Assembly: GCA_903813345.2 (NCBI GenBank)
Contig: CAIIXF020000001.1
Coordinates: forward strand, 14,632,001-14,696,000
Origin: Owenia fusiformis
Lineage: Eukaryota
Length of the DNA: 64,000 nt
Reading direction: 5' to 3'
This document shows, piece after piece, positions 1,296 through 43,679 of the stretch (its first letter is position 1; the number at the start of each line of letters is the position of its first letter). Both the position numbers and the translations under genes were made by a program. The notes beneath the pieces are model-generated. The model made no database searches and was not told where the DNA came from. It saw nothing but the letters and a program-made list of their open reading frames with translations.

Positions 1296-1427
1296 GTGCC
1301 TTCCTGATCCCTTACTTCACATTCCTGATCATCTGTGGCATTCCTCTGTTCTTCATGGAGCTCACCTTGGGTCAGTTCTCCAGTCTCAGTCCCATCTCTG
1401 TCTGGAAGATGTGCCCATTGTTCAAAG
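1296..1427 (+). CDS. SLC6 exon (TM2): [44 protein letters not shown]
   Basis: ttgtag| acceptor, |gtaaga donor, 132 nt, phase 1-1. Confidence 0.95.
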
Positions 1428-16400: not shown

Positions 16401-19400
16401 TATTTGTAACTTTGCAATTGCCTATAAGATTTACATTTTATCATTCAAAAAATGCATTATATTTTGTAATAATGACAGCATGTTAAATTGTGACATCACT
16501 CCTCTAGGACAGTGCAACCTTTTGATATATTCCTGAATCTTAGAATCACAGAAGTATTGGTAGAAATATCTGATCAAATCTTAATATTATGAAATAGATA
16601 TTTATAGCAATAGACACTATATTAATAGCTATCTTTGAAAAAATTCATCAGCATCGCATATCCAGTTGAAGTTCTTTCCACCAGTATCCAATAATTAACA
16701 ATAAATCTACTCATTTATTTGATTTACAGCATCTTTTCAAGGTGGAATAGGTTTTATGGTTTATTATTCTGGTATTGCCAAGTGAAATGCAAAACAATAA
16801 AAGTAAAAGTTCTCGATCACCCTGGTTACGAAATACACCAGTGTGATGTACCTCTCTATATGAATTTAATATTTACAAATGCTTGATTTGAATAGCATCT
16901 ATCTGTTGTTTTTGTGTTTATTGAATTATGACTCGACACTTCCGACATATGCCTGGGTCACATTTGCTCCGATTGCAGTATTTTGTTCAAAACTGATTTC
17001 AACTTGCTACAAATTGACCAAACCTTTTTTAGAATCATGTACAAGTTCTACAAGCAAATGTGTATAAGCAAATGTGACATAGGCATTATGAATGAATGTG
17101 ACTGGAATAAATTAAAAAATGAGTTCAAGCATACATGCTACAGGACATCATTGTCATCACTCATGCATGTTAAATATATAAGCTTGAATAATTGAAGCTT
17201 AAAAGTGGTCACTCTGAGAATAGCTTGATCCCATGAATGTATTATAGCAAGTTATATAATTACTTTGTAACTACTTTGACTGATCATAGGGAATTAAACA
17301 CTGACATGTCTAAGTATTCTTCAGGCAGAATAGAATGAATGATGTCGCTAATTAACTTGACCCTTTATTGCATGGACTCTTGTTGGAATGTAGCTAAAAT
17401 ATACTAAAAAAATCCAATAAGTGTTTACATAATATACCACATGTTGAATGCCCTTGGGTTTGGGCATTATATCAAAAGGCATTGTACCGAAAAATATTAT
17501 ACCAAAATCCATAATATTCCATATATACATATATTTGAATTTATATAGGTTAATTTTTGATTTTCATTCTAGAGTCGTGTCTTATCTTTTAAAGTCTACT
17601 TTTCAAGCCAAATCATTTGGTGAATTCTCGAAATCGTTGTTCCCTCTTCAAAAGAGGAGACGCGAAAATCTTTCCTTATAAGGTCAAAATATTTCCCATG
17701 ATGCAGTTCGCGGAGGAACAAATTTATACTTCCTTGTTTTCCCTCATAGGTTTAACATGGGGATTTTCACACCTATTTTTCAAACGATATATTCGTTCAT
17801 ATTCCCGTACGAGAGTACAGAAAAAATTATTAGAAACGATTGATCTCTTATTAATCTTAATATAACAGCTATTTTTTTTCATTGTATTGATTCATAGCGT
17901 GGTGAAAACGACGATTGAAAAGTGAGAAAATATTCCGGAAGAGAAGGTCACGTGATCAGTTGACTAGTCGCCATATTGGAAAAAACAATTCCATTCGACT
18001 TTCAATACTTTCGATGCCAATCTTACCGCATTACAAACTGCAACATCGATGCAACAACTGAATAAAAGTATTCATCTTCAAATTACATTATAGAGTTACG
18101 TTGAAAACCCACAAACAACTGAGCAGTAGACCAAAGAAGACGCGTTGCTATTATCTAGGTCAATCTGTTCTGTGGTCCGAAAGCAAATCTATAGTACTCG
18201 TTTCCGAATTTTGTTGTTCATTGTACAATCTTTTATTGATTAAACTCGGTATACTGACTATTAAAGCAATGACAAAGAAGAATATTTCCGATGGTGTCAT
18301 TGTTTTATTTAGCTTGCGGGTGTAAAAACAAAATTGCGTAATTAGTTTGATTTAGAACTTTCGGGTCACGCAAATAGCTACGCGAAATGCATAGTGGGAA
18401 AATATTGACCAATCAAATTTTGTCCTTTTTGAGTGCTTTTTCAGAACATATTTGCGAACGTTCTGATTCAAAGAGCGAACCGCGAAAGGGAGAATTGATC
18501 TGAAATTTTTAGGGATGTTTTTTGGTATGAAAGTTTAGAGCTGCTTAGTTTTTGGTCATTCTGCGTAGATGTTAAGGTGGCCTGTGATTTTGGACTTTAC
18601 GTTTCAAAAAATTGTCTGTTCTATTCAATTGCAACACTGTTCACTCTGTACAAGAGATGATGCATCTACAAATGAGACATTAGATTGGAAATTGTACTTT
18701 ATGTCAGGCAAATGCCCCTGCTATAATGAAGACCTCCATAGATCATATGTGGAATAAACAGGTCCAAAAATAAGCCAACTTGGGCAATAAATACATGAAA
18801 AACTATTTTAGTTTCAAGCGTGCTTTTATCAGGTACAATGTATTATTCGTCCACGAAATGAAGTTCTATAACGATCTCACTAAGGCCACCTTAACTTATG
18901 AAACCTTCTATTGTTTCAGGTTTAGGCTGGGGCATGGTGCTTGTATCAGGTATCGTGTGTGTCTACTATAATGTTATCATCACCTGGTGTCTCTACTATC
19001 TCATCATGTCCTTTACCTCCAAGCTCCCCTGGGGCTCTTGTGACAACAGCTGGAACACCGACTTGTGTGCCACTTCTACAGGGAACAAGACAGAATTTAC
19101 AAATATGACTATTAGTAACGTCACTGATCAGTCGAGTGTGTACAGCATGGTGACAGCAGTTACTGAAATGACGGGGAACTTCACAAATGTAACAATGGGA
19201 AATGTAACAGAAGTTAAAAAGATGACATCCGCTGAGGAATATTGGCAGTGAGTATTACTGTACATGATTATATATTTGACGGTTTTAAATTTTAGTTATT
19301 CTGGTGTATCATTTAAGTACAATGCATGACATCTATCAATCTGTATTAATCCACCATACATAAATGCATTGATTATGCACATTGAACAACTCACAGAGCC

Positions 19401-22400
19401 TTCATTGCTTTTCACTTGACAAGCAATGAAGTTATTATGTTACCATCAAAGTGGTGACATGTGATGACTGATGTTTTTTTGTGATGGCAGTTAGTGTCTG
19501 TAATGGTGGTTGGTGTCCATGTTTGGTGTTCTTACAACTTCCAATAACTTAACAAATACTGTGTGGACTTCATATTTCTTCATGTTTTTCAAAATCATCT
19601 ACAAGTTCCAAGAAGTTTTTAGACTTTTGATTTGAGATGTGACCTTCACGCATGACCTTCTAAAGGTAAAAAAAGGTCAAAAAGCCAGTTACCATAAGCT
19701 AGCTCCTTTTGTCACATGCTAGGATTGAACCCAGGACCTTGGCATCAGAAGTCCAGAGTGCTAACTTTTACATCACAGAGCCAAAGACTTTACATTTCAG
19801 ATTTGAGCTTAAATGACCATCTCAAGGTCAAAATGGTCTTTTTTCAACTTGTCTCAAATTGACCAATCTTTTATCAAAAACATCCACAAGTTCTCAGACT
19901 AGTCTCTCTGACTAAGCTTGTATTCGCCAATGCAAATAGTGGCTAACGGATTAACCTATTAATTAATTTATTAACAGTAATCAGTGGTCACATGACTTTT
20001 TTATGCCTATGAAAGGATCGATTATAATAAAGCCGCTCGGTCAAATTTGCAAACAAAACATTGGACATTGTTACATGCTGCTAAATAGGCAGATGAACTG
20101 GTTATTTAGGCCAATTACCGGGTCTGAAGTGAGAGGTGGTAGCTAACGGGAATCACGACAGGTACTATTCATATTTAAATGAGTTTGCCTTCAAACTGCA
20201 ATCAACCCGATAGCCAGTAGCCATTATTTGCATTCGCGAATACAAGCTAAGACTGAATTCATAATATTGTGAGCAACTAGGTGTTGTCATTTTGTCATGT
20301 TAATGCCTTGTAAAAAAATGTGACATTATATTACGCACCCTAATGTGTACCTTGTTTTAACTGATGATTACATGGCCTTTTAGTCAGTTGAAAATCCATT
20401 TGCACCCTGTTCAATTGAAAAAGAAACAAGAGGAAAATTTCTGTGGAAGACACTTGTGTGCCAAGAACACCATTGGGTATATTCCACTTTTACAGAAAAG
20501 TACAATATCAGAGAAAATTGAATATGCTTTAATAAGATGGAGATAGATCCCTCAGATTGAATAACATGGCAACTTGCAAAATGTCCCAGTTACACCTCTT
20601 GATAATACAAATAAAAATATTTCCATTTTAGATATAACACTCTTGAGATGACAAAGAGCATGAATGAACTTGGTGGGATCAGATGGCAGCTTCTGCTGTG
20701 CCTGGTACTATCTTGGGTACTTGTCTTTGTATGTCTTTGCAAGGGTGTCAAATCATCAGGCAAGGTAAGCATTCAATCAATTTGAATTCTCATATTTTGT
20801 ATTCAGAGCCCTATGTTCAGAGGTTTGAAGGTCTGTGTTCAGGGAGACCTTTGTTCAGCTCCCTGTGTTCCATGGTGTGAAGACCTATGGAGGAAAGTGA
20901 TGTATGTAGAAGATTTAGTTCAGAGATGCATAGGCCTAAGTTCAGAGATGCATAGGCCTAAGTTCAGAGAATCAGAGGTCTATGTTGAGAAATGAGGGAC
21001 TGTGTTCAGAGGTGTTTAGGCCTGGGTTCAGAGATTTATAGGCCTAAGTTCAGAAGTGCAGAGTTCTATGTTCAGAGGTGTAGAGACCTTTGTTCATATC
21101 TTCATCTTGGTTCAGAACTTCAGCTGGGATCAGAGGTATAAAGACTCTGTGTTCAGAGGTTTGAAAACCTTTTGTGTAGAGGTTTGGAGGCCTGAGTTTA
21201 GAAGAGTAGAGACCTATATTCATATTGAAAGGGTCTCTATACAGAGATGAATATGATAATAAAAAAGTACCATATTTTGCATATGAACATGTTTAAATGA
21301 GCAGAAAATATTTTATATTTTATATCATAAAATCTATAGAAACGTACACATGTTCTTTGGAAATAAAAAGGGCTCAAAATTTGCTTTTATTTGTCAAAGT
21401 AGTTATTTGTCACCAGACTTGAAAAAGAAATTGCTTCTAATTTCACCGGTGGGGATCTGTGCTGTCTTGTAAAACACTGGACTCTCTTGAAAATACAAGA
21501 TAATACCTCTGATTATACCCTTCTAAATTTTTTAACCATTTTTTACTTTCATTTACCTACGGAATGAAATTCTGAACAATGTTAATTTCTAAACCAACAT
21601 TACATTCTAAGTCATAAAAATTGTTGTAAAAGGTTGTTATTTTGGCACTGAGCAAAAGTGTCTTATGAATATATAATGTCTTATATTTTCCAGGTGGTCT
21701 ATGTAACTGCAACTGCCCCCTATATCTTTCTAGTCATCCTCCTCATTAGAGGCCTATTATTGCCAGGAGCCATGGATGGAATAAAGTTTTATGTCACTCC
21801 AGATTTCAAAAGACTACTTGACTACAAGGTAAAGTATGTTATAAAAGAAATATATACTAATATAAATATTGTAGATTTCCAGTACAGTAAAACCTGAATA
21901 TACAGACACTTCTCTGATCAGAACACCTCCTGGTGTGAACACTTTCTCAGCCCTAAATTTGTTATCTCCCATCAACTCACATACTAGAAACCTTGAAATG
22001 TGAACACCTGCTAATCTGAACACTTTTGACTGGTTCCAGTGCATGGTGTTTGGATTAGACAGGTTTTATAGTACATTTAAATATAAGATATATAGAGGAT
22101 ATCCTATGATTTTTGAGGGATACCATTTTTATCCATGAGTGGATATCGCTCATCTCCACAAGTGAGCGCAGCGAATGAGTGGAGATCGGCGATGTCCAAG
22201 AGTGGATAAAAATGATAGCCGAGAAAATCATAGGATATCATATTTATCCAATGGTCGCTATTTTTGTATGGACTTCAAATAATTTGACCTAAAGTTGTTG
22301 TTTTCTAATTCTATTCTATTTTTTTCATTTTATTTTCTGTGACCTTATTTTTATAAAATGATTGCATGAAAAAATGTAACTCATTTTTCCTGAGCATATA

Positions 22401-25400
22401 ACCTTGGAACTTTTCAGATTTTTTCCAAATATTTTTTCAATTTTTTCCAAATTTTTTTTTATTCCTATAATTTTATTTTCAAATTTTTTTCCGAATTAAT
22501 TTTCAATTTTTTCCTCAAAATTTCAAATTTTTCAAATATATTTTTTCAAAATATTTTTTGAAATAGTATCCGTTGGATACGATTGGATATCACGTCATAT
22601 GGATCGGATACGATTTTAGTAGCGTATATGAAAATTATCCTGTGTTGGTATCCCCATATATGTTTAGTATCCATTGGATAAATTAGGGTATGCAGTGAAA
22701 TGCATATTTAAAAATCTGAAATATTAGAATGATATTGGCTTTTGTCCTCATGCATATTCACTTTGATTTGTCAACCTAACCTTTCCCATTGGACAGGATC
22801 ATGATACTATAGTAAAATGAGAGGTGTTTGCACCAACTTTCTGTTATACTGACCCAATTTAAGCTTCATTTTATAATGCAGTTCATATATATTCGACAGC
22901 TGCTCAATATTAGTTCTACATTACAGCCTGAGGTTCTTCTATAATGCATTTATGAATTTACAGTTATGAAGAAAAGAAATTTACATTTTCCCCATTATTA
23001 ATATCAAATGTGGTTCAAGCCAGTTCCTTAATGATGATTACCTGTTATAACTTTTGTCAAAATGTCCATTATTGTCACTGGTGTCATTGTCAATTCACTG
23101 ATATGAATTGGTAGTAATTATTGTCAGACTTATTACAATGAATATGGAATTATTTAATACCAAGCATTTTTCTATGATTTATTCCTATTGTTCTCTTTGT
23201 AATGATTCTAGTTCTAGACTAATATATGGGATAATGTGGTTCTCCAATTTCATATCTGGTCACCCTGCTCTTTATAATCTCAGAAATACTTCACAGTTTT
23301 TTGTGATAGATATCACACAAAAATAAATTGCTCGTTTATAGATAAGCTCACACATTGCTTATGTACTGTATGAGTCTTCACTTTGTATTTGTGTTTGCAG
23401 AAAGATGAAAATAGATGCGAAGTTAAATAGCTTAAATTCTACTGCCAATATTGTTGGATTATATAGAACAAAGATGTATTGACTCTCACTCAGTATTGAA
23501 AGACATGTCTCACTCTTTTATTTGCATTTTGAATGGAAGTTCACAAAATATTCATGCAGATATTACATGGAAATGAATAAAATGCATTTTAAGGGACCAA
23601 ATCACAGATGGATTGTCCATTAGTTAAGAAATACATTTACTCTATTTAACCAATATTAAAAGGTGTGGGTGGTAGTATCTTGAGAATGAAATATTCATTT
23701 AGAATTAAAATTATTATGTTGACAATTCCCAATGTGTGTATACATGCATCTCTGTGTTATAACAACCATTTGTTTGTGTTTAGGTGTGGGTAGAGGCTTG
23801 CCTACAAATATTCTACTCCCTGGGTCCTGCCTGGGGTGGCCTAATCACAATGTCAAGCTACAACAAGTTCCACAATAATGTATACAGGTACAGACTTTAA
23901 TATATCTAACATAGAGGCTACGAGGTTTTAGATATGGGGTTTATCCCAAGAGAAATATGTGTCTCTTCCTCAGTCCCTGTGGTGGAGATACATATATTTC
24001 ACTCAGGATAAACCCTGTGTTTAAAACGGGACATGCATTGTACAATGGAGATGTATCCCATACCTAGTATGGTTCACTTTCATTGCCTGACATGTTGAAA
24101 TGTATTAACAAACATAAATTGAGTCTGCTAAAATGGATCAGTACTCATATTTCTCTATGAGTGCAAGATATCAGAGATAGTGGGACTGATACAGAAAATA
24201 TCTGACACACTCTGGCTACTACACTAGTCTAGAATCTACATGCATTACATCATGTTACCTGCTTATACAATACGTACAATATTATATGTTGTATGATATA
24301 TGCTACATGTAATATTGGAGAAACAAAAGATAAGATATTACAAAAAAAACATGTAAAACATAACAACTAGAAATGTGACTTATAAACTTAGCATAGTTTT
24401 CACTATTTTTCACTACAATTTGTGTCATTTTGTTTTTTCGCCATCTTTCTTTCACATAGAAAAACATTATTGTAAACTTGTTTGTAAAATATCTCATCTC
24501 TACAATCAAATATGCATCATAATAGGCTATCCTTTGGTTTCAAAGGTTAGTTGTAATTTCATATGTTAGTCGTAGAAAAGTATCAAGAATCCAAAATGGT
24601 AGTGAAGCACAGAAATGTTTTTCTATTTATTTTAGGGATGCCATATTCGTACCTTGTGTAAACTGTGGCTCCAGTTTCTTTGCTGGTTTTGTCATATTCA
24701 GTGTCCTGGGCTTTATGGCCAAAGAATCTGGGCTAAATGTTAAAGATGTTGTAAAACCAGGTAAGAGTAATCAATCAACCGTGGAATACTTTTTGCCTTT
24801 GATAAATGCTCATGAATTTTTATAATTTACAGCTACTGCAGTTAATGCTTGTCATAAGAATTGATTATCAAATTAATATTGATCATATCTATGTAAGCTA
24901 TTGTAGATTCCAAAAAGTATGTTTTTGTCTAAATGTATATAAGCACTGTACATTTATATTTTCAATGTAAATAATGTTTTGATGTTTTTGTATTATCTTT
25001 ATACTGTACATGTACTTTTAATTTTAACCCTCTGTGTATGTTTATATACTGTTCAAAAATATGTGAAAACCTATACAGTGACCCATATGTCAGAGAGACT
25101 TACATAAAAATGGTCAATAAAAGACATATACGTGTGTGTTAACATCCTCATGGTAGAACTTGAATGTTAACTCTACAGTTGTTTGACTTATGTTCTATTC
25201 ATAGTTTTGAACAGACAAAAACAAACGTAATTTAATTATTCAATTAATCAACATAATTTATTGATATGTTCCAAAAATATGCTCCGAACCTGTGGCTTCC
25301 AACTTTAATGGAGCTAGTTAACTTGTATGACAAAATGAACAGATCTGTTTCTTTTCAATTTTTAATGCAGTTTCAGTATGTTTGCTGATCAGTTCAGATG

Positions 25401-28400
25401 ATTGATTACAGATCACTGATTAGAACAAATGAAGATTAAAGATCTAGAAACCCCATGCATGTTAAGATTTACTCTTTTTTACAATATTGTCTTGTTCTAA
25501 GTATTCTGAGATAAATCTGAACTTTCTCCATAAATTCTAATCATAATACATTGGTTTGTTTTATCTACATTTTTCGAAGTCCTCAAAATCCTTTGATTGT
25601 ACAATTGAAAATTAATTGAGAAAATAATCTGAAAATTACACATAGATTTTATACTAAATGAATTGTAGAATGTACAGATTCATGGTCTAAAATGTATGTA
25701 TGTCGTTCTATAATTTACCAATTGCAAAAGTTCACCATAAAAAATGAACTCACTGATATTAATGTGTGGGTATATTCATGCGGATTATAGGTCCTGGATT
25801 AGCATTCTCTGCCTACCCACAGGCAATCACAAAGCTCCCCATATCCCCCCTCTGGGCCGTCATGTTCTTCTTCATGTTATTAACCCTGGGGCTGGATACA
25901 CAGGCAAGTATTCCATACCGCATGTTCCCCAGTCTACTCATAGAGGCATGTCATGGGTTAATAGTTTAGTACCCAGCCAGTCTAACACTTGATTGTGGAA
26001 TAATATTTAACCAATAAGCTCATGTGTCAGATCATTGAGATTGAAAATTGTGGTCAAGGTTAGACTTTTTAGAATTTGATTTGTAAATTGTAGTACTTTG
26101 CAAAATAGACCATGGTTGTTATACTGTATTATATCATTCATGATTTGAAAATGCAGAACATATATGGCTGGTTTGAAAGCAGCCTTATTATAATGGTCTA
26201 TTTCAGAAAGGAGAAAAGCTGCTTGATTAAAAGATTTAATCTTGCATTTTGCATTTGTTTGTTTAATAGCTTTATTATCCCAACGAACGAAGTTCGGTAG
26301 GGATATAGTGAAGCGTCCGTCCGTCCGGAAGATAACTCAAATACTAGTTGACGGATTTTCTTCATATTTAGTGGAATGATGTATATTGGTGAATAGTTTT
26401 ACGCAAAAAATTTTTTTTCCAAGATGGCCGCCACTTTAAAAATGACGGGACTTTTTCGCAAAAATCATAAATTTTTCATTCTAAACTAAAGTAATTAATA
26501 TTATTGTTTGAAATTTTGGTAGTATATTCGCAACATCTATCTATTTCACATATATTCCGTGTTTGTCATCCTGACCCCCAGGGGCCGTGTATGGGGGGTC
26601 AGGAAAACAGAAATTTTTGCTAATTTTTAGATCTTTCTGAAGTATAGCTTTATTATACTCAAATGAAAGGCAATTAAGAGTAGATTGCAAATATTATATC
26701 TTTTTTCTGATTCGAGCCTCGTAAAATTCAAAATGGCCTTCTAATGTACGATTTCGCAATAATTTTTCGATCCCTTCAAAGTATGGTTAATATATTATAC
26801 TCAAATTGAAGGAATTTTGGAGTAGATCAAAATTATGGTATTATTTTTCAGATTTGTACCTCAGAAAATTCAAAATGGCTGCTTTGCAGGAATTCGCAAT
26901 TCTAAAATCTAAATTTTTCAATTTTAAACAAAGTAATGAGTATAATTGATTGGAATTCGATAATTGATATTTTGTTCGTTGGGATTTGCTACTCCGTGGA
27001 GTTGCCATTATCTAGTTAGTTTATATCTGTCGCTGTGTTTGCTACATGTGGTGTAGTTTATTTTCGTTTTGAACAACCAGGAAAAAAAAGCTCACACTGT
27101 AGTTGTATCACTGTAATTTATTTTTGGTTTTTATTTTTGCTTAATAAATGGTCAATGCCTATAACATTTATTTATTGAAGATCAGAAAAATACTAAAAGA
27201 GATTTTATCAGGGTGGTCTGTTAGTTTTGTTTTCCAAAACATTCAATCTGTTCTCACTTCCCCTGTGCAGCTTTCTATTGCGGAGCAGATTTCAGGTTTT
27301 CTTCCCAGATTTATGCAGAAACCTGTCCAAATTGACTTAGTTTGTGTATTGGACTGAAAAAAGTAATTTTCTTCCAGGCCCTGCCCTTGCATTTGGTGCA
27401 TACCCATATGTTCTGACAAAACTACCAATTGCCCCATTTTGGTCAATTCTTTTTTTTCTGACCATCTTATCAGTTGGTGCTGATACCCAGGTAGGAATGC
27501 ACAGATCTGGTATAACAATACATACACTTCAAAGAAACACTAACAATTGGCAATCAGGAAGTGATGTCATCGACTCTCAACTTTGCATATAACATTAGGC
27601 AAGGAGCTATTAGGATTACTAAACCAGCTGAATATTTTTTTCAATTTGGTCTATGATTAAAATCCTTTTGATGGTCTCTTCTTTAGTTCTAAGTTGACGA
27701 CTCCTGAAAATATTTTTACACAGAAGATAAGAGCTTCTTGTTTAGAAGTGATTTTGTACTTCTTTCCTATACTGTAATAGACAAGGTTATAACAGGTGAG
27801 AGTCGATGACATCACTTCCTGAAAGAAATCTGAAAAGATGGCAGCTTACTGGGAATTAGTACTACATTTTTAAATGTTCAATATTGACCATATGAAATCG
27901 TTTTCCCGCGTTTTGCTAAATATGTAAAGTATATATATGATTGTAGCTACCATATCAGGAGAGAGATAGTCTGGCAAGGAATGTTCCTTTAAGTTGAGCA
28001 AATGAGGGTCAACAAAGATTGAATAAAGCTATTTGTCACAGGGTTTTAATACACCATTAGAAAAGGGAAGGTGTTAGGAAGGATATTATTACAAAAGTCA
28101 GCTTCACCTTTCAAATGGTATATAAGAACCTAGGACAAATTGAGTAATTTTTTTCTCATGGACTTAAGTTTTTATGTCAGTGGTTGGCGGTTGGTGGTTG
28201 ACGATCGGCGTCTTTGACAAATTCTTGCAACTTCCAATAACTTAACAATTACTGTTTAGACTGACTTCAATTTTTTTTCAAAATCATCTACCGTATTTGC
28301 CGTGATTGGTGCCCGGGCGCTTAAAGTAAGTCAAAACAGTTCAAAAAGTTCTCCTTATTAGCGCCCATATGAGTCCCGATGAGAAAAATGCCGGAGTTTC

Positions 28401-31400
28401 AGTTTCAGTTTAGAAAAAAATTGGAAAAAAAATTTGTTTCATGAAATTCGCCATGTTTGCATGAATCGTAGGGTTCTTGCCTATCCTACTCTTTTCGGAA
28501 CACTAGTGGAATATAAAACATGTACTTACATCAGTATTTTACTCGATAATTCGATAGGAAAACGATATAAACCCACGGAATCGAATACTTCCGTTTCAAT
28601 TTCTTCTCAGCCTCGTTTTGAAATTTTCAACACAAACTGAACGAGGTGGCAAGATTACAGGGAAAATCACCGGTAAACATCAAAATATTGGATATATACT
28701 TGAGTTACCAACATTATATACATTTTATGGTGAAAAGAATGTCATATTCAAGCTGGAATACCTTTTGGAAAAGGTATATGTTTTTAGAAGTTCAAATCTG
28801 ACTTATATTTAAGATTTGACCTTCAATGACCTTTTCAAGATCAAAAAAAGTCAAAAAGTTTTTTTTTAACTTGCTTCAAATTGACATTTTTTTCAAAATC
28901 ATCTGCAAGTTATCAGTAGTTCAAATCTGACTTTTAATTTGAGATTTGACCTTCAATGACCTTATCAAGGTCAAAAAAGGGCTTTGTATAAAAACCTCAT
29001 ACCTTATACCCACCTACCCACGTATGTGGGACATGATACAGTCTTTGAAGGGTTCAATTTTGAAGATCTTAGTTTATTAAAGATGCATTTGTAACGACCC
29101 TTGATAGCAAGTTGCTACTACATCCCAGCTGGGTTCGATTCCCACTCGGGGCATCAAATTTAGCACATTTTTTTCAGTTTCTTTATCTTGCTTGTTGGAC
29201 CTATGCTTGAGTCGTTAGTTATTTATTCCCCTGGGACACCCTCGGGTCATTACACATTTAAATGCATCCATATTCCTTTATTTATGGATCTGTCTAGTCA
29301 TAAAATAAAGCCTGAATTGTAGAAATGTTGATAATTTGAGCTATTTTGAGATTTAATAGTCTTTAAAATTGAACCCTTCAATGACTGTATCATGTTCCAT
29401 GTAGGTGGGTATGAGGTAGGAGCCCGAAAAGGTCAAAAAGGTCTTTTTTCAACTTGCTTCAAATTGACCAATTTTTTTTTCAAAATCATCTACAAGTTCT
29501 CAACAGTTCAAATCTAACTATAGATTTGACCTTCAATGACATTCTCAAGGTCAAAAAGGTATTTTTTCATCTTGCTTCATTTTGACCAACTTTTTTTTTC
29601 AAAATTATCTACAAGTTCTTAGAAGTTCAAATCTGACTTCTGAGATTTCACCTTCAATGACCTTCTCAGTTTCAAAAAAGATTTGACCTTCAATGACCTT
29701 CTCAAGGTTAAAAAAGGTCAAAAAGGTCTTTTTTCAACTTGCTTCAAATTGACCAATTTTTTTTCAAAAATCATCTACAAGTTCTCAGAAATTCAAATCT
29801 GACTTAAGATTGAACTATTGTGAGCATCTAGGTGGTGACATTTTGTTATGTTAATGCCTTGTTTAGGTCTTTGGGAGATCAACTATTTATTCATTTCCAG
29901 GCAGCAAGTTTACAGGAGTTTTCATTTCTCATATGACCAAATCGGATTCAGCCATCTTTACTTATGCATGTACCTAACTTTCAATCTATGAAGTCACATT
30001 GCAATATATTGTGACTCTTGGTAGTGTCCCTTGAAGCTGAATGCAACTTGAAACACTTTTGAGTCAATTTATAGTGCAGTCACTTACATGACCTTTATGT
30101 CTCACACTCTTTCAGTACATTTTGAACTCACATGATTATTATATCCAGTATTATCCCATTCAAGGAGTTTTGTTATGCATATCCATGTATATTCAAATAT
30201 ATTAATTGCAGGACCTGGTTTAGCATTTGCAGCATACCCGTTGGCACTTACTACATTACCCATCTCACCTTTTTGGTCAATAATGTTCTTTGTAATGCTC
30301 TTGACTCTTGGTCTTGATACCCAAGTGAGTATTTGAACCTTGTTTGGTAAGTGAGGGCATAAGTGAGTTCATTTAGCTAAGTCCACAACCTATACATGAT
30401 TTTGTGTTTGCACTGTTGGATTCACTGTTCCGTTCTCAGGCCCGTAGCCAGGGCGGGTTTGGGGGGTTTGAGCAAACTCCCCTCCAGGCCAAAAAATTCT
30501 TTCAAAATCAAGCAGTTTTTTCCCCATTCTGAGCACTTTTCAAGTGATTTTGGCCATTTTTAGGACAAAGTTGTCAAAAATGTTCCCCCCTTTGCAAAAG
30601 CTGGTTATTGGGCTGATTCTTCAGCTAAATCTGTATGATAAATTAATAATTTTGATTAATTTATGATTTAATTTAATGACGAGTCCATATGATAATTACA
30701 GGACTTACGAACAATGGTGCCACTCATTATATCCCCAATGAATTTTTACTGTAATTCCATTTTTAGTATATTGTTAGAAAAACTATTGTCTTATGCTAAA
30801 ACCTGTGTCTTTGCAATATATTCGTTTGTTAGGATAAAAAGATACAAGGAATTCCTGTAGGATTGATTGATAGGATTTAGAATATCATTTTGAAAAACAT
30901 TGAAGCATGATTTTTAAAACGAAATACTGCATTCTTTATTGAAGGACCCCAGGGCTCAATGAATTGTGGATGTCATTTTTGACTTCTGTATTATTCCAGA
31001 AGTCAGCTTTCAAAGTCTCACCTTTCAAATGGTATATGTGTTTTCTATAATTTGTACATATTAAAAATGAATAATGTTGAACAACTCCTTTTCCCATCAC
31101 GATGACCACGCCCCTTTGTCTCGCAAATGACAGATGGACTTCTTGATCATATTAGAAATATATTAATTGCAGAACCTGGTTTAGCGTTTGCAGCTTACCC
31201 ATTGGCACTTACTACATTACCCATCTCATCTCTCTGGTCAATTATGTTCTTTCTAATGCTTTTGACCCTTGGTCTTGATTCCCAAGTGAGTATTTGAACC
31301 TTGTTTGGTAAGTGAGGGCATTATGTAGTTCATTTTTGGGGTCTGTAGGAGAACTCCAACTAGACAGAGCATTCAGTCTCAAATGTTTTGGAACAGACAA

Positions 31401-34400
31401 AATCTAGTCTCAGAATCCATAAGAGTGTCACTGGATAAAACACTATTTTTCAATAATAGTCATAAGAAGGAAATAAAGATATGTACTACTTGATCATATT
31501 GAAAATATATTAATTGCAGGACCTGGTTTAGCGTTTGCAGCTTACCCATTGGCAATTACTACATTACCCATCTCACCTCTCTGGTCAATTATGTTCTTTC
31601 TAATGCTTTTGACTCTTGGTCTTGATTCCCAAGTGAGTATGTGTACCTTGTTTAGTAAGTAAGTCTACCACCACATGATTTTATGTTTGCACACTTCGAT
31701 TCACTGTTCTGGAGCTAAATCTGTATGATTTACTGTGAGTCCATTTGAAACTTTCAAGCTGTCTTAATGGTGACACTTCAGCCACACTGCATCGAGGCTT
31801 GGGCTTGAATTATTTTAACACATTGCAAAATATTTTCTATAAAATCACCTAAAAGATACAAAATCACTAAAAGATATTTTCAATGAAACTTTTTGCGAGG
31901 GTCAAGTATTGGAAAACTCATTTATTACATTTATTCCAATTTTAGAATATTGTTGGAAAAATTGTCTTATGCTGAAACCTGTGTCAGCAATATTCATTTG
32001 TTTGGATAAAAATACCAGGAATTCCTGTTGGATTAGTAATCATTTTAATCCACACCATTATGGAAACTTTGAAGCAAGATTTTTAAAATGAAACACTGCA
32101 CTCTTGTTTAAAGGACCCCAGGGCTCAATGAATAGTGGATGATTTTAAAATGAAAATCCAATATATAGACCTTCAATAAAGATTAAAGACACGAATTGAA
32201 GACTATATAAAATACATTGAATCACACACAATTCAATTAGTCAATAAATTTTAATTCTTTTCACACATATAGCAAAAGATTTTGGACAATTAAACATAAA
32301 AAAATGAAATTCAACCAGAAAAGCCATACTGTTTTCTGATTGGCAGAGAATGGAATGTGATTTGTCACTTAATTTAATTCAATTTATTCAAATATTTAAT
32401 TCAATCATTATGTTTACAGAATTTATTGATATAACAGGTGGCACCACATGTGATGCATATACCCGTACATATAGTTGTGAAATCATGTAGTATATCAAAT
32501 CTAAGTTGTCAAGGAATTGAACCAGAATGAAATCACAAAAATTAGGTTGAAAAGATGATATTTAGTGATTCCCAATGCCTTTTTCACTGGCAATACTGTC
32601 CATAATTTGGATTTAATTACCTCACCCAGGGCCTAGGGGTGTAGAGAGGCCATTCATTATTTTCTCCTTGGTCTGTCTGGGCGATAACTCAAATAGAAGT
32701 TGACAGATTTGGTTCAAAGGACGATTCTCGGTTTGGAACTGGGCTAATAATTTTTTTCATTAAAAATATAGAAATATTACCCAAATTAAACTATGAATAT
32801 TCAAAAGAGGACATTTAAATCTACAAGATGTAAAAATAACAAATTGGTCTGAAGCAGGGATAACCCTCAATTAGACCGATTCAATAAAATACAAGTCTCG
32901 ATTTGGGGAAAGAAGTTCATCAGTGTACTGCGCTAATATTTTTTTGCGAAAAATCGAGAAATATTACCCAAATTAAATTATGACTATTCAAAAGAAGACA
33001 TTCAAATCTATATTATGTAAAAAAAATCAAATTTGTCCGAAGCAGGGATAATGCTCATTTAGATTGATGAACTTCGTTCTCCAAACCGAGAATCGTCCTT
33101 TACAGGCCGATACCTAATGGGTTGTCAGATTTGGTTTAAATCATATACTTTACCGTATGTTATTATGCTAGTGTACTGTATGTAATTTTTATGCTAATAT
33201 ACGTGATTTTATGCGTTTGTATGTGATTTTTATGTCACCACCAAAAGTGGTGACATATTGTTATGGTCTCCGTTTTTTTGTGACGGCGTCCGGCGGTTGG
33301 TGGTTGGCGTCCGGCGTCCGGCGGTTGGCGGTGGGCGTCCGGCGTCTGTAACAATTTCTTACAACTTCCTATAACTTAACAAATACTGTTTAGACTGACT
33401 TCAATTTTTTTCTAAATCATCTACATGTTCTCAGAAGTTCAAATCTGACTTTAGATTTGACATTTGACCTTCAATGACCTTCTCAAGGTCAAAAAGGTCT
33501 TTTTTCAACTTGCTTCACATTGACTAATTTTTTTTTCAAAATCATCTACATGTTCTCAGAAATTCAAATCTGACTTTAGATTTGACATTTGACCTTCAAA
33601 TCTGACTTTAGGTTTGACATTTGACCTTCAATGACCTTCTCAAGGTCAAAAAAGGTCAAAAAGGTCTGTTTTCAACTTGCTTCAAATTGACTAAATTTTT
33701 TTTTCAAAATCATCTACGTGTTCTCAGAAGTTCAAATCTGACTTTAGATTTGACATTTGACCTTCAATGACCTTCTCAAGGTCAAAAAAGGTCAAAAAGG
33801 TCTGTTTTCAACTTGCTTCAAATTGACTAAAAAAAATTTTCAAAATCATCTACGTGTTCTCAGAAATTCAAATCTGACTTTAGATTTGACTTAAGATTTG
33901 ACATTTGACCTTCAATGACCTTCTCAAAGTCAAAAAAGGTCAAAAAGGTCTTTTTTCAACTTGCTTCAAATTGACTAAATTTTTTTTTCAAAATCATCTA
34001 CATGTTCTCAGAAATTCAAATCTGACTTTAGATTTGACATTTGACCTCCAATGACCTTCTCAATGTCAAAAAAGGTCAAAAAGGTATTTTTTCATCTTGC
34101 TCAAATTGACTAAATTTTTTTTCAAAATCATCTATATGTTCTCAGAAATTCAAATATGACTTTAGATTTGACATTTGACCTTCAATGGCCTTCTCAAGGT
34201 CAAAAAAGGTCAAAAAGGTCTGTTTTCAACTTGCTTCAAATTGACTAAAAAATATTTTCAAAATCATCTACGTGTTCTCAGAAATTCAAATCTGACTTTA
34301 GATTTGACTTAAGATTTGACATTTGACCTTCAATGACCTTCTCAAAGTAAAAAAGGTCAAAAAGGTCTTTTTTCAACTTGCTTCAAATTGACTCATTTTT

Positions 34401-37400
34401 TTTTCAAAATCATCTACATGTTCTCAGTAATTCAAATCTGACTTTAGATTTGACATTTGACCTTTAATGACCTTCTCAAGGTCAAAAAAGGTCAAAAAGG
34501 TCTATTTTCAACTTGCTTCAAATTGACTAAAAAAAAATTTCAAAATCATCTACGTGTTCTCAGAAATTCAGATCTGACTTTAGATTTGACTTAAGATTTG
34601 ACATTTGACCTTCAATGACCTTCTCAAAGTCAAAAAAGGTCAAAAAGGTCTCTTTTCAATTTGCTTCAAATTGACTAAATTTTTTTTTCAAAATCATCTA
34701 CATGTTCTCAGAAATTCAAATCTGACTTTAGATTTGACATTTGACCTTCAATGACCTTCTCAATGTCAAAAAAGGTCAAAAAGGTATTTTTTCATCTTGC
34801 TTCAAATTGACTAAATTTTTTTTCAAAATCATCTACATGTTCTCAGAAATTCAAATATGACTTTAGATTTGACATTTGACCTTCAATGACCTTTTCAAGG
34901 TCAAAAAAGGTCAAAAAGGTCTTTTTTCAACTTGCTTCAAATTGACTAATTTTTTTTTTCAAAATCATCTACATGTTCTCAGAAATTCAAATCTGACTTC
35001 AGATTTGACATTTGACCTTTAATGACCTTCTCAAGGTCAAAAAAGGTCAAAAAGGTCTGTTTTCAACTTGCTTCAAATTGACCAAATTTTTTTTTCAAAA
35101 TCATCTACATCTTTTCAGAAGTTCAAATTTGACTTTACAAGTTCTCAGAAACTCAAATCTGACTTAAGTTTGAACTCATAATATTGTGAGCAACTAGGTG
35201 GTGACATTTTGTCATGTTAATGCCTTGTTATTAATTGCTTTAATCACATTGCATATTATTTTAATACACATACTCTCAATGGTCTAAGGATTACAAAATA
35301 TATAAAGGTCGACTCAACTTTTAAATTGAGCTCATATGCCAGGTTTTTCTGGTATTGAGATCATGGCTTGATAAGAAGAAGTATAGGTTCTGGTTGTATG
35401 AATGAATGCTATCTAGAACATCACTTATCACTTATGCAATCACTTGTAAGACCATGGTCTTGTAAATAGGTATATCAGGTGATACACTTCACCTTTTCAT
35501 GTTATTATGTCACCACCAGAACTGTTATAGTCTCCAACCTTTTTGTGGCTGGTGTTTGATGTTCAGCATCTGTAACAAATGGAAGGTGGTGACATTTTGC
35601 ATGTTAATGCCCTGTATATAATACTACAGGGTGTGCCAAAAAACGGCACTTTTTTTCAAGACACTATAACTTTTTTATTTTCAAACCAACATACCCATGG
35701 TGACATATTTTATTCATATAAAAGTGTATAATTCATGATTCATGGCTAGATAACAACCTCAAGTTTCATTTGCTATGCAAATTATAATTTTTTATTAAAA
35801 ATTAAAAAAGTTATAGCATTTTGAAAAAAAAGTGGCGTTTTCTTTTTTTGGCTCACCCTGTATATATGTTTGCTTTTTGCCTTGCATGCATCATATTACA
35901 CGCACTAATCTCTGCAAAGCACATCTACTTTGTATTACTAATAAGTTGTTTTAATTTATTGGTTACTGTACATATATAAAGTGATTGTTTATTTGTCAAC
36001 AATTTGAATTTCAAATCAACATTTTCCAATTTCATACTTGCACAGGGTGTGTATCAAATTAAGCGTGACAGTTGAACATGCGTGGTAGGGTACAACACGA
36101 GGGTGATGAAATTTGAGCAAACTGATGTTTTTATCTTTTCAGAATGATCTGGTCTAGTTTTTAGATATTTTTTATATGTAAATGTCTGTAACAACATCCT
36201 AGACCGTGAACTTGACAGTGAATTTCATAGTTCAAACTCCCAATGTACGAGGTATAACGCGTGGTAATGGTAAGGTACAACACAAACAATTTGAATTTGT
36301 GTTCTACAGTATATCAGGTAAATTTACCTGAGCGTTATACCGTATACTATATTGGGAGTTTGCATAGGTTTAATTATGAAATTCACTGTCAACTTCACTA
36401 GCACTGTCAAGGATGTTGTTACAGACATTTACATATAAAAATATCTGGATACGATGAAACATCAGTTTGCTCAAATTGCATCACCCTCATGTTGTACCTT
36501 ACCTGTTTGTTCAACTCTTATGCTTGGTACACACCCTGTGTACTTGGGTTTATATAATTCACCACCCTACCTTCCATACTTGGATTTTCATTTAGTTTAA
36601 ACATTACCAACTATTCTTAATAGTTGTATAATAATTATTATTAATAGATTATGAAGAGAATAATTTCTGTAAAATGATTCTGTTTCAGGACTCAACATTT
36701 TTGCAATTCAATTATATTTTAACTTTTACATTAGAAATTAAATTTCTATTAATTTTAAAACTATTGTTAGCAGGGGATATTCGTTAGCAGGGGATATTCT
36801 CAATATACTGGGAATCTGACGAGCCTGTTTCTAGGTAAGGAAACTCTGTAAAACTATCACAGGATACTGAGTAAAATCACCCCTACCTCTCTCTGGATCG
36901 AAAATGGAGGTCTGCGTTCAGTATTTCCAGTTGTACCAGACGAAAATACTGGACGAGTTTCTATCCCCTGCTAACAATAGTTTTAAAGAAGAAGAAGATC
37001 GTAAATGAAGATTTTGTTTTTTCTATGATTCATAAGGCGCTTTTACAAAAAAAGGTAAGTGGGACCATCAACAAATACTTAAGACTCCATGTACTGTATG
37101 TATATATGTTCATAGACTAAACACTCATATATACTCATCTATTTTCAGTTTGGTATGTTTGAGACTCTTACAAGTGCTTTTGTGGATGAGTTCCCTGGAC
37201 TGCTAAAGGGCAAGAAGTTACGATTCACAATATTCATTTGTGTCATACAATTTTTAGCAGGATTGATATTCATAACACGGGTGAGTTACTTTGACAACCT
37301 AAAATAATAGCCATGCAGTTCAATGTGTACAGAATTAAAGCAAAATATAAAAATCCAGTATTCAACACAAAGCCAGGCTCATGTATTCATTTGAGACTAG

Positions 37401-40400
37401 CATTATTTTTTAAGTGTTGACTTAAGTGTTTTTCGTTACATATTTTAAAAATGATATTTTCTCCAAAAGAGTGATAATACTGTAGTTCCCACTTTTTGAG
37501 GTTTTGTACATTTTTACTGTGCATCTGCAGTATCTGATGGATGGAAAGGAAATAAAGATGAAAAGATGCACTGTTGCTTTATAATACGTATGATGTGCCA
37601 TATATTCTATTGTTGTATCTAAATAGCATTTTTCTTTAATGATATGCCATTCTAAAGATCCGGCCTGTTTGTTTCCATCCATCTGGCCAAGTGCTAGATT
37701 GTACCTATTAGTTACATGTTTTATGATATCATGGTCTGTGACTGATCGAGACATTTATTTTCTTTTTCAGGCTGGAATATATTTCTTTGTTTTATTTGAC
37801 TGGTACTCAGCAGCTTTCTCAGTAATGGTTATCTCTTTGCTGGAGTGTGTCGCTGTTGCATGGGTATATGGTGAGTCTATACATCCTTAACCTTGTGTGG
37901 TCAAATAAAATAGTAATTGCTATGGTAGATTAATTCCAGCAAACATTTATAATGCCCACTCATATCATTTATAGTTCAGCCCATATTAATAAGAACCCAT
38001 TAGGAAGAAGGAAAGAGGTACATTTAATATATATTTTCTATCAATAAAATCTGTTCTTATTTCCAGGGGTGGATCGCCTATACTATGACATTGAACTGAT
38101 GATTGGTTATAAGCCCTCCATTATCTGGAAAGTTTGCTGGCGTTTTATTACCCCTATAATTATGTTGGTAAGTTCCATGTTTTAGAATAACATTCTAATA
38201 ATTCAAGGTCATCTTTCCAAACAGGGTCAAATTTAATGTCCAAAGACAGATGGTGCAAGGGGTGTCGTGCAAGGCGCCATACCCAGATTACTGTTGAGGC
38301 AGTTCTTTACTCAAAATTTTACATCTCTACATGTTTTCTCCCTGAAATAAATAATAATGGGGTGAAAAATAACTCCTTATATAGTCATGCATGCTCTCCA
38401 CATGATAAATAAATCTATAATATATAATGTACAAGCAATATATTTTAAACAATGTATACAAACTATACACATAAATGCTCCATCTTATTCAGGTAATCTT
38501 AGGGTTTACAATAGGCACAATGAATGAGCCAAAGTATGGAGATTACACATTACCACGTTGGGCTATTGCTCTCGGATGGTGTGTTGCTATGGTTTCTATT
38601 ATACCAATACCTGGAATTGCTATTTACAAGATCATAAAGGAGAAAGGAACACTTCGTCAGGTTTGTTCACTTTCATTTTATCTCCAAGGAGGATTGGGTG
38701 CCAGGACCGAAACTCAATATTTTCCAACAATGAAATCGTCGAAATGTTGTTATTTTCTGAAATTATAACCGACTATAAATTCAAAATGAACAGTTCATAA
38801 GATTCGAACCAATATCTCGATCATTTCTTGTGAATTTTGGAATTTGTTGTTAGGAAATAAAACCAAAATTTGTGATTCAAATGTTGAAGTGAACAAAATT
38901 ATAGCTGCTGTTTGAATTCGAATTTTGTATCACGACATGAATATTTATAAACAGTAAAACCGGTCTAATTGGAACACCTTTGGTACCTCTGAAAAGTGTT
39001 CCACTTGGGAGGTGTTCCATTTATAAAGGTTCATTTAACATTAAATCAGTTGGTCTTGGGACTTTGAAAAGTGTTCCACTAACAGAGGTCTTCAATTTAC
39101 AGGTTTCACTGTAGTTCAAATATAATACTATGTACACATATATATACATAACATCAGGGCTTTCAACTTGTGACCATCTAACATGAGGGGGGTAGGTGTA
39201 AATATTTTTGAAACAAATGCGTGATATATACACATATTTTGTACCAGATGTGTGACATAAACAGCAATCGCGTGCAAAGACCGAACGGAATGCGTTCGCT
39301 TTTTTTCGCCATTTGCTTTTTTACCGTGTCAGCATTTCACAAAAAGCGATTTTTAAAAATATCAACAAAATGCGTGATTTGCGTGATATTTGATCATACA
39401 CGCTAAATTGATGCGTGATTTCTATTTTTCCAGCAAATGCGTGACAATCACACCTAAAGCGTGAGGGTTGACAGGGCAGTAACATATACTGTAGACCTTT
39501 GAAACCATGTACAGTAATTACAATAATTAGAGGAGCAAGAAATATAACAGACAAGTTGAGATTATTTCTTAACAATTATCACAATTTTTCGATATATGTC
39601 TTGTTCATAAAATGGCTCGCCTGTTTTGAACTTGTACATTTCTTTTTTCAATTCTAATGAATATTTCTGCATCTTGAATCTTCAGGGAATTCTTATTTTC
39701 AGAATGACGATTGTGAAGGCAGCATCGACAATTGACATTTTTTGAAAAGTTTACTTCCAACATATTCATGCCCAGTGATTAGACAACTGGAATAGAGGGT
39801 ACTGTCAATTTCTGCTAAGAAATTCAACAAATCTGGAAGATTCATTTTTTCAATAGAAAGTTTACTGCTGAATTGCCTAATGGATAGGCACACTGTATGG
39901 TAAAATATGTTAGGACTTCTAGGATTTATTTTTTTAATTGATACGCTTCTAAGATACAAGATCTATTAAAAAAGGTGCAAGGCCATCAATGAGCACAAGT
40001 AAATGTTTTTGCTATAAATCAAGTCTACAGTCATGATTTGTAAAAAATACTTGTAAGTGACGTTATCATAACAAAAGTTATGCCATTGCTGACTTTACAA
40101 ATATGTTTCCAACATTGTAAAAAATAATCAAAAATAATTAGAATGGGACGGAGGGGGAGGCAATGGAGGGGGAGGGAGTAATAATAAGGTGGAACAAAAC
40201 ACAAAATCTTGTATTAGTAAATGAAACTGGTTGTTTATAATGTATGTAATGGAAACTTATATTTTATAAAGTCAGCAAAAGCATTCATTTTGTTATGGCC
40301 TCACTTACATGTTCTTATTACAGGATGCGAAGACCATTGTAGCTTGATTTATAGCAGAAACACTGTCTTGTGCACGTTGGTGGCGTTGTGCCTTTTTCAT

Positions 40401-43165: not shown

Positions 43166-43679
43166 TGTGAAAGATATTATGTAGTACAGAAATTATCACT
43201 AAGCATCGTGAAGGCCACATGCATGTTATTATCATGAAATTATACATGTTGTTGAAAGGTATTGTAAATAGATATTATTGTTGCTAATAACTTGAGATGA
43301 AATCAAATTGTGTACACTGAAGTATTGCTACCCATATATATACTGTAGGTTCATTTCTGCTCAGAAGTGTCCACTGCATGCTTGCAGTCATTTAACATTG
43401 CAAAAATTGGCATAGTATTCATTCAGTATTTGAATAGAATAAGGGTTCAATAATTATATTCAATATTTGAATTTACTTTATAAATCATGTATACAAATGT
43501 TCAATAGGCAATATTTTCTTTGCTTATATATTCAATGTAGATATGCAATGTATATGTTTTCGTACTTAAATGTGCATGTAGTGTAACACACAGCAATAAC
43601 ATTGTAGAACCATCACTCAGTATCATTCTTTCATGTTATAATATTAATAACAAAAAGAGGCAGTTATCTTTTGGTGGAT

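Follow-up and report, generated by a model that had tools for sequence, protein, structure and literature searches.

The SLC6 transporters are major drug targets. Within this family, splice variants of GlyT1 and GlyT2 take the form of N- and C-terminal forms that alter the cytoplasmic tails. Outside it, the exon 4 variants of the cation-chloride cotransporter SLC12A1 (NKCC2) supply a transmembrane helix and shift the affinity for ions along the nephron. A passage of PMC9741552 mentions these variants, A, B and F, which are tandem, homologous and mutually exclusive exons. In the channel NALCN, according to passages of PMC3557258, the tandem mutually exclusive exons 15a and 15b swap an ion-selecting element in molluscs, annelids and other invertebrates. 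For C. elegans, passages of PMC4165533 describe mutually exclusive clusters with non-3n exons, 14 of 19 being NMD-dependent, in which premature stops arise when the exon is skipped or more than one copy is included; the largest cluster described there, mrp-1 exons 13A-D, has exons that are 3n long. Duplication of exons in tandem, with exclusivity imposed by the reading frame, is a well-established device, and tandem mutually exclusive exons are familiar in ion transporters; the array described here is of interest as a further example and introduces no new principle.

The array lies in a window of 64,000 nucleotides of Owenia fusiformis, an annelid (marine worm), and is likely to be a tandem-duplicated cluster of mutually exclusive exons in an SLC6 (GlyT/PROT-branch) gene, with one 113-nt exon per mRNA. 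It resembles that of SLC12A1 in its tandem homologous exons, but has five copies rather than three and occurs in another transporter family and fold region; the SLC12A1 array is, moreover, vertebrate, conserved and functionally tested. NALCN varies a channel pore with two copies, whereas here a transporter helix is varied with five. The NALCN pair is, on the passages cited, old and common to several phyla; for the Owenia array, the homologues and metagenome loci searched held no counterpart. With the non-3n clusters of C. elegans, as described in those passages, the array shares homologous tandem exons of equal length and premature stops from wrong combinations, and it differs from mrp-1 in its exon length of 113 nt (3n+2). 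Dscam exon 6-type clusters are likewise large tandem arrays contributing one exon to each mRNA, but a k-mer scan gave no sign of their docking/selector mechanism here. Relative to GlyT1 and GlyT2, the same family is diversified by splicing, but what the Owenia gene exchanges is not the tails but the EL4 lid together with a core helix that contributes Na2 ligands. The initial annotation knew of no mutually exclusive array at this position in SLC6 genes, and the literature searched, a scope outside which the Drosophila catalogue falls, held no mutually exclusive exons in any SLC6 gene. Neither PMC9741552 nor PMC5740500 uses the term "SLC6" in its main text (0 occurrences), and "snf" likewise has 0 occurrences in that of PMC4165533; supplementary gene lists of these papers could hold cases. 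PMC2883569 makes no statement on a 113-bp exon in human DAT.

Gene structure and reading frame of the array

An SLC6/SNF gene of the GlyT/PROT branch runs along the + strand of the window. Its constant exons are 1296..1427 (TM1b-TM2), 18920..19247 (TM3 and the glycosylated EL2), 20632..20764 (TM4), 21694..21828 (TM5), 23784..23887 (TM6) and 24636..24760 (TM7-EL4a, 125 nt), followed beyond the array by 37149..37280 (rest of TM8 and TM9, 132 nt), 37771..37870 (TM10), 38067..38167 (TM11), 38493..38660 (TM12) and 40690..40878, the last coding exon, with the stop codon. Exons earlier than 1296..1427 lie upstream of the window. Joined through the first variant exon, the exon translations reproduce residues 92-676 of the annotated Owenia protein P0352 letter for letter. 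The public annotation contains this form only (P0352, 676 aa), with the first variant joined to 37149.

The identification of the gene as an SLC6 transporter was borne out by Pfam. SNF (PF00209) matched 9 of 9 submitted exon translations, eight of them at more than 27 bits on their own, and is also carried by the proteins P0001 and P0352. Along the profile, exon 1296..1427 covers positions 37-85 and exon 18920..19247 positions 82-167; the exon upstream of the array covers 282-327, v1, v2 and v3 each cover 327-363, and the downstream exon covers 363-407. The best PDB matches were to GlyT2 (3.5e-144), PROT and GlyT1, then to GATs, and named homologues were mostly "glycine transporter 1/2-like". 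On this sequence similarity the gene is assigned to the GlyT/PROT branch.

Five homologous exons of 113 nt had been placed between positions 24760 and 37149, and all are present there: v1 (25791..25903), v2 (27378..27490), v3 (30212..30324), v4 (31173..31285) and v5 (31520..31632). Each is preceded by AG and is free of stops in the frame starting at exon base 3; the donor is GC after v1 and GT after v2-v5. The final base of exon 24636..24760, a G, opens a codon that each variant completes. The array has exactly five members, as tblastn of each variant peptide against both strands of the window gave E values of 1e-12 to 1e-22 and the best match beyond the five places had an E value of 0.01. No other exon is duplicated, each remaining exon of P0352 matching the window once. 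The most diverged copy is v2. The youngest, v4, is 97% identical to v5, from which it is separated by 347 bases, and v3 is 90-91% identical to both. All five copies are intact. In v4 the split codon gives Glu rather than Gly, and a Pro shared by 93 of 102 homologues is replaced by Ser.

The length of 113 nt is 3n+2, and the phase is equal in all five variants. Single inclusion of any variant keeps the frame open, whereas skipping, or any of the pairwise doubles (10 of 10), leads to a stop within 3-12 codons. This outcome had been predicted in the initial annotation and suggests that the reading frame enforces one exon per mRNA; NMD probably enforces it as well. The pyrimidine content of the 22 bases before the acceptor is 0.45-0.50 in the variants as against 0.64 and 0.73 in the flanking constant exons. 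Docking/selector pairing was sought as a site complementary to sequences adjoining at least three variants, and in this weak, one-species test the k-mer scan gave only AT-rich 8-9-mers shared by descent.

Divergence of the copies and the segment they encode

The view that v1 and v2 are strongly diverged from v3-v5 under selection held up: silent sites are saturated and the protein is kept. Between v1 and v3, 25.5 of 27.2 silent sites are changed versus 10.5 of 83.8 replacement sites (Fisher P 5e-15), and replacement divergence between v1 and the v3-5 lineage is only 0.12-0.15 at saturated silent sites. The dN/dS ratio is 0.11-0.15 for v2 against v3-5, 0.16 for v3 against v4 (P 0.005) and 0.19 for v3 against v5 (P 0.016); v4 and v5 are separated by one silent and two replacement changes. 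Purifying selection was found for the lineages v1, v2 and v3-5, and for v3 against v4/5. The silent saturation among the three old lineages, the kept protein and the dN/dS of v3 against v4 and v5 together argue that at least three or four of the five exons are functional. The v4 exon may be relaxed, perhaps decaying. Six residues of v2 occur in 0 of 102 homologues.

The variant segment covers the latter half of extracellular loop 4 together with the greater part of TM8, and it aligns gaplessly to rGAT1 361-397 and hGlyT2 543-578. The Na2-site motif of TM8 (Leu-Gly-x-Asp-Ser/Thr) is present, with the Asp at position 35 invariant in v1-v5. The Na2 ligands Leu392, Asp395 and Ser396, given in a passage of PMC10352132, correspond to segment positions 32, 35 and 36. 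At position 32, v2 has Val where the other variants have Leu, and at position 36 a Thr shared by v1-3 gives way to Ser in v4-5. A passage of PMC6797481 assigns GlyT2 residues I545, Y550, P561, W563 and L569 to a lipid allosteric pocket; these are segment positions 3, 8, 19, 21 and 27. Depending on the variant, position 27 holds Phe, Leu or Val, and v4 has Ser at position 19. By this alignment, variable residues are located at Na2-site positions and in the EL4-TM8 pocket defined in GlyT2.

The 91 members listed from 10 many-member homologue clusters yielded no similar array or set of isoforms, nor any pair of isoforms of one gene differing in this segment. Two Mytilus forms considered as isoforms were rejected as products of neighbouring paralogous genes. 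None of 80 metagenome loci had two full copies of the segment, and one had a partial second copy. A word-index search for v2-like segments found none (12 candidates, none scored), and a profile-free HMMER search of 1.84 billion representatives returned 391 matches at E <= 0.001, with a best identity of 66%. Of nine matches with two stretches, most show whole blocks repeated identically and seem to be artefacts of assembly or of the gene models. The exception is P0204/P0356, which has a degenerate partial copy right before a normal exon.

RNA evidence and alternative explanations

RNA was compared in four runs (X9, X15, X6 and X18), their RNA nature being judged from spliced contigs. Mapping of the upstream joint at 24760, as the initial annotation had suggested, revealed two different acceptors in use, those of v1 and v2. 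In X9, a 1502-nt contig of depth 11 (record 16) passes from 24634-24758 straight to 25789-25903 (v1) with 0 mismatches, leaves v1 exactly at the GC donor and continues for 918 nt. In X15, a 2744-nt contig of depth 32 (record 1) matches 24634-24756 followed by 27374-27490 (v2), again with 0 mismatches, leaves v2 exactly at its donor and continues for 1646 nt, to a partner beyond the compared stretch. A 172-nt contig of X6 (record 10) consists of v2 flanked by 25 and 30 nt of non-intron sequence, and depth in this run was 16.9 on v2 versus 15.5 on the constant exon. The main variant in two runs (X15 and X6) is v2, whose upstream junction is seen in both, and the joint between the upstream exon and v1 appears in one (X9). 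Both junctions of v1 are supported, the upstream one by the X9 contig and the downstream one by P0352. Run X18 had almost no depth on the constant exons and yields nothing on variant choice.

For v3, v4 and v5, the four runs gave no spliced contig, and no junction read among the joints listed. The 15 of 169 joints listed were filled by repeat-derived RNA, and exon junctions were read from contig pieces. The depth of 32 in the X15 v2 contig is not extended over v3, where the bin mean is 3.2. Depth in the v3 and v5 bins (6.0 and 8.6 in X6, 1.15 in X9, 3.2 in X15) was rejected as evidence of use because adjoining bins have a repeat depth of hundreds to thousands and, for X6, because this run also contains low-depth intron contigs. 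Of the earlier proposal of up to five transporters, RNA backs v1 and v2, which are spliced to the upstream exon in different RNA sets; what speaks for v3-v5 is their sequence conservation.

These RNA data would suit an arrangement in which v1 and v2 are the only working alternatives and v3-v5 arose recently as intronic duplicates (pseudo-exons) that stay out of productive mRNA. The AT-rich, pyrimidine-poor acceptors of v3-v5 point the same way, as do the one silent and two replacement changes between v4 and v5, the Gly-to-Glu change in the split codon of v4, and the protein searches, which met no v3-v5 segment, although v3, v4 and v5 were not among the queries. We nevertheless regard this arrangement as unlikely. 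All three exons retain length, frame and AG/GT, and the dN/dS of v3 against v4 and v5 is low. The saturated silent sites and limited replacement divergence against v1 imply long constraint on the v3-5 lineage too; the RNA scope, furthermore, is just four runs, one of which barely expresses the gene. Alternatively, the variants could be ordinary cassette exons or noise, with the annotated v1 form as the real product and v2 inclusion non-productive and targeted for decay, in keeping with the v1-only public annotation and the six unusual residues of v2. This is very improbable, given that v2 is the through-path of the deepest X15 contig, reaches constant-exon depth in X6, is in frame when included alone and is under strong purifying selection relative to the other copies.

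The near-identity of v3-v5, above all of the closely spaced v4 and v5, might also be taken for an assembly artefact such as collapsed or duplicated haplotypes. This is scarcely credible for copies whose flanks diverge beyond the allelic level, those of v4 and v5 being about 87% identical (12 mismatches in 183 nt, 3 of them exonic). The independent run X6 also covers the spacer 30843-30984 without mismatch (record 13) and, with one mismatch, 31316-31532, which leads from unique spacer into v5 (record 14), and the source contig is a 62-Mb scaffold.

Proposed use of the variant exons

In a mutually exclusive cluster of this kind, exclusivity would stem mainly from the 3n+2 exon length and nonsense-mediated decay, as the frame and the contig depths suggest, and weak splice signals could let exon choice be regulated. 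The v3-v5 lineage would be used too, v4 perhaps no longer. The isoforms would differ in the packing of EL4 on TM8, affecting gating and the allosteric lipid pocket, and in small details of the shape of the Na2/substrate site. Their overall fold is probably shared, the likely differences being in kinetics, ion coupling or modulation, as judged solely from mutants of human GlyT2 and rat GAT1. It is possible, if rather doubtful, that at least four of the exons, if not all five, are chosen according to cell type or stage to give several transporters differing in sodium coupling, substrate preference or lipid/allosteric sensitivity.

Public Owenia gene models omit four of the five alternative exons, and the array adds a multi-member mutually exclusive cluster to the annelids, where few are described. 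The Na2 site, an allosteric lipid pocket and part of the substrate site are found in EL4 and TM8, and the Owenia array may be seen as a series of chimeras, shaped by natural selection, that share a single constant background. If the proposed use is correct, the array would naturally exchange, as one cassette, the EL4 lid and the helix that bears Na2, something not yet described for any SLC6/LeuT-fold neurotransmitter-type transporter, and v2 would be its most altered form.

The Exon Array and Its Host Gene

The window has a G+C content of 34% and contains no N. Translation of 18916-19248 gave 111 residues with a 99% match to P0001, a 468-residue Owenia fusiformis protein. Residues 92-676 of P0352, a 676-residue Owenia protein from the same cluster, were reproduced letter for letter by a chain of plus-strand exons with exact translation at 1296-1427, 18920-19247, 20632-20764, 21694-21828, 23784-23887, 24636-24760, 25791-25903, 37149-37280, 37771-37870, 38067-38167, 38493-38660, and 40690-40878. 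Most of a single plus-strand SLC6 gene of this annelid thus lies in the window, with residues 1-91 encoded upstream of it. All nine submitted exon translations matched Pfam SNF (PF00209). The nearest solved structure was human GlyT2, followed by PROT, GlyT1, and GABA transporters. Homologues were mostly named glycine transporter 1/2-like and came from molluscs, brachiopods, nemerteans, and annelids, with 45-64% identity among the matches listed.

Five homologous 113-nt exons encoding EL4b-TM8 lie between the constant exons 24636-24760 (TM7-EL4a) and 37149-37280 (rest of TM8, TM9): v1 (25791-25903, the copy used in P0352), v2 (27378-27490), v3 (30212-30324), v4 (31173-31285), and v5 (31520-31632). 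The initial annotation's observation of this array was confirmed in every detail. All five copies are stop-free when read from the third base, and each is preceded by AG and followed by GC (v1) or GT (v2-v5). A tblastn search of the window with each variant peptide returned the same five places and no others below E 0.01. As claimed, no other exon is duplicated: every other P0352 exon had a single match in the window, and the annelid-type homologues P0015 and P0023 matched the variant exon five times and each other exon once. The upstream constant exon ends in G, and the codon completed by the first two bases of the variant is Gly in v1, v2, v3, and v5 and Glu in v4, where it replaces the Gly preceding a PGLAF motif. 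Single inclusion is the only sensible product, as had been proposed. Each variant alone is open through 37149-37280, skipping leads to a stop after four codons, and all 10 double inclusions run into a stop in the second copy, 3 to 12 codons from its start.

The window also contains repeats. The array's last intron contains eleven repeats of a 136-nt unit (33595-35137), with related copies at 29429-29668, about 16000-16280, 19700-19860, and 28820-28960; these scattered copies are abundant in the contigs and reads of the RNA runs. Two unrelated minisatellites, at about 11207-12174 (23 copies of a 42-nt unit) and about 42450-43170 (18/54-nt unit, about 700 nt long), have strong GC skew of opposite sign, and both give long spurious open frames.

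Transcription and Annotation of the Variants

RNA from four studies, comprising one raw run (X18) and three runs kept as contigs (X6, X9, and X15), was mapped to 24400-33500, a stretch that stops short of the 1.5-kb tandem array at 33595-35137. A 1502-nt X9 contig (depth 11) joined 24634-24758 directly to 25789-25903 (v1) with no mismatches, then left the genome at the GC donor and continued for 918 nt. A 2744-nt X15 contig (depth 32) carried 24634-24756 followed by 27374-27490 (v2), also with no mismatches, and 1646 nt more. The overlaps of a few bases at the ends of contig pieces are the AG or CCAG common to exon end and intron end. In X6, the upstream contig stopped at 24761, and v2 was present in a 172-nt contig at a depth of 16.9, against 15.5 upstream, with 25 nt of other sequence on one side and 30 nt on the other. 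These contigs show that v1 and v2 are both truly spliced to the constant exon and that the main variant differs by data set. From bin means we infer that X9 also carries v2 at similar depth, although no contig piece represents it. The proposal of up to five transporters from one gene is thus supported for v1 and v2, whereas no RNA showed use of v3-v5. In the junction mapping that had been suggested, contig pieces gave the joints from the upstream exon to v1 (X9) and v2 (X15); the 15 joints listed in the junction table, which has 154 more, were repeat joints only. The v3 and v5 bins had a depth of 1-9 but adjoin bins where repeats raise the depth to between hundreds and tens of thousands, and one of three low-depth X6 intron contigs (30843-30984, 31316-31532, and 31903-32095) accounts for the depth of the v4 bin. 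Constant exons were hardly covered in X18. Coming from an independent run, the X6 intron contigs show that the spacers between v3, v4, and v5 exist as assembled.

Intronic stretches at 26224-27135, 29264-29871, 30480-30783, and 32608-33500 had depths of hundreds to over 100,000 in all four runs, with many internal joints, and are most likely transcribed multi-copy transposable elements. Single-base differences between assembly and RNA-run contigs at 24687 and 24702 (constant exon) and 27437 (v2) are presumably polymorphisms.

Apart from v1, the array is absent from current annotation. P0352 contains v1, and P0001 reads through the v1 GC donor into the intron (25904-25966) and stops after 21 residues, probably reflecting intron retention or a model artefact. 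No protein with the v2 segment was found in v2-based searches, and no v3-v5 segment was met in protein searches for homologues of the gene, which used no v3-v5 query. Among the 119 homologues, 14 terminate no more than 43 residues beyond the variant-type exon; they derive from molluscs, spiders, a sea spider, and transcript contigs (P0005, P0006, P0008, P0009, P0020, P0024, P0033, P0046, P0061, P0068, P0075, P0097, P0118, and P0120). Most of their tails begin with Val, as expected for reading into a GT intron, and in many species the intron 3' of this exon seems to be a frequent site of retention or mis-modelling.

Origin and Selection of the Copies

Homology of v1 and v2 to the other copies is confined to the exon, whereas v3, v4, and v5 are also alike in flanking intron: 30195-30374 matches 31156-31335 and 31503-31663 at 91%, 31134-31316 matches 31481-31663 at 93%, and 30743-30979 matches 31922-32146 at 80%. 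This similarity shows that v3 and v5 go back to a duplication about 0.8 kb long, and that v4 was added by a small, later event. The initial annotation held that the diverged v1 and v2 are under selection, and Nei-Gojobori counts with Fisher tests bore this out. Among v1, v2, and the v3-v5 group, silent sites are saturated or almost so (19-25.5 of about 28 changed) and replacement divergence is 0.12-0.33 (P 2e-5 to 5e-15). dN/dS was 0.16 for v3 and v4 (P 0.005) and 0.19 for v3 and v5 (P 0.016); v4 and v5 differ by one silent and two replacement changes. Coding sequence has therefore been retained in three old lineages and on each side of the v3/(v4,v5) split, a conclusion that does not extend to v4 itself.

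Of the 119 homologues compared, 102 yielded a 37-residue segment. Position 6 of this segment is a small residue in all five Owenia variants and Val or Ile in 98 homologues; position 10 is Glu in 83 homologues and in none of the variants. Both patterns fit an origin of the copies by duplication within the gene's own lineage. No isoforms of one gene differing in this segment were found among the 91 members listed for ten many-member homologue clusters (oysters, mussels, scallops, octopus, Lingula, amphioxus, and spiders). Two full copies of the exon were seen in none of 80 metagenome loci, 26 of which have at least 1 kb on both sides. Sixty-three metagenome loci gave a full-length match, and in 39 of them the boundaries of the segment are those of the 113-nt exon; the exon itself is therefore an old unit. 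Degenerate partial second copies (20-22 residues) lie directly upstream of the normal exon in P0204/P0356 and in one metagenome locus (L013:3973-4229; 22 residues, 146 nt upstream), and may be remnants or beginnings of a like duplication.

Probable Function and Splicing of the Swapped Segment

The segment aligns without gaps to rat GAT1 361-397 and human GlyT2 543-578. Sodium site 2 of GAT1 is described as Gly59 and Ile62 with Leu392, Asp395, and Ser396, the last adjoining the substrate carboxylate (PMC10352132). The three TM8 residues correspond to positions 32, 35, and 36. The Asp is the same in all five variants, position 32 is Val in v2 and Leu in the others, and position 36 is Thr in v1-v3 and Ser in v4-v5. 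In GlyT2, I545, Y550, P561, W563, and L569 are reported to shape an extracellular allosteric lipid-inhibitor pocket between EL4, TM5, and TM8, and inhibition is weakened by P561S and L569F but not by F562L (PMC6797481). These five residues correspond to positions 3, 8, 19, 21, and 27. Position 19 is Ser in v4 (Pro in 93 and Ser in 2 of the 102 homologues), position 20 is Leu or Phe among the variants, and position 27 carries Phe (v1), Val (v3), or Leu (v2, v4, and v5). At six positions (2, 6, 10, 11, 28, and 34, the last being Ala in v2 and Leu in the other variants) v2 has residues found in none of the 102 homologue segments, and at four of the six the family shows no or almost no variation; despite this, two runs express v2 more than any other variant. 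Which properties the swap touches we infer from these alignments: gating (EL4 closing on TM8), the fine structure of the Na2/substrate site, and lipid modulation are likely to be affected.

Inclusion of one exon per mRNA is probably enforced by the exon length together with nonsense-mediated decay (NMD). With an exon length of 3n+2, any other product would terminate early, well ahead of the final junction, and NMD could clear products with zero or several copies. Of 19 C. elegans clusters whose exon length is not 3n, 14 are reported to show more of the wrong isoforms when NMD is mutated (PMC4165533), and the Owenia array resembles these clusters in that wrong combinations would be NMD targets. 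The surroundings of both constant exons were scanned for docking sequences complementary to sequence beside at least three variants, and only AT-rich 8-9-mers common to v3-v5 by descent turned up. The array therefore shows no sign of a Dscam-like docking/selector mechanism, a single species being a weak test. Steric exclusion is not expected, because the shortest intron between copies (31286-31519, 234 nt) is long enough for splicing. Pyrimidine content is 0.45-0.50 at the variant acceptors, compared with 0.64 and 0.73 at the constant neighbours, and these poor acceptors and the GC donor of v1 fit regulated exons.

Tandem mutually exclusive exons are described as common in ion channels and transporters, with three in SLC12A1 (PMC9741552), the 15a/15b pair of NALCN in annelids and molluscs (PMC3557258), and four in C. 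elegans mrp-1 (PMC4165533). The Owenia array shares the tandem arrangement but has five exons and lies in an SLC6 gene. In agreement with the initial annotation, which knew of no array at this SLC6 position, we found no case of mutually exclusive exons in an SLC6 gene in the literature searched or in the main texts of three catalogues, whose supplementary lists might hold one. Tandem mutually exclusive exons are thus already known as a device, and what appears to be new is their occurrence in an SLC6 gene, as a real, multi-member, and partly expression-verified array in a functionally central module of the transporter.
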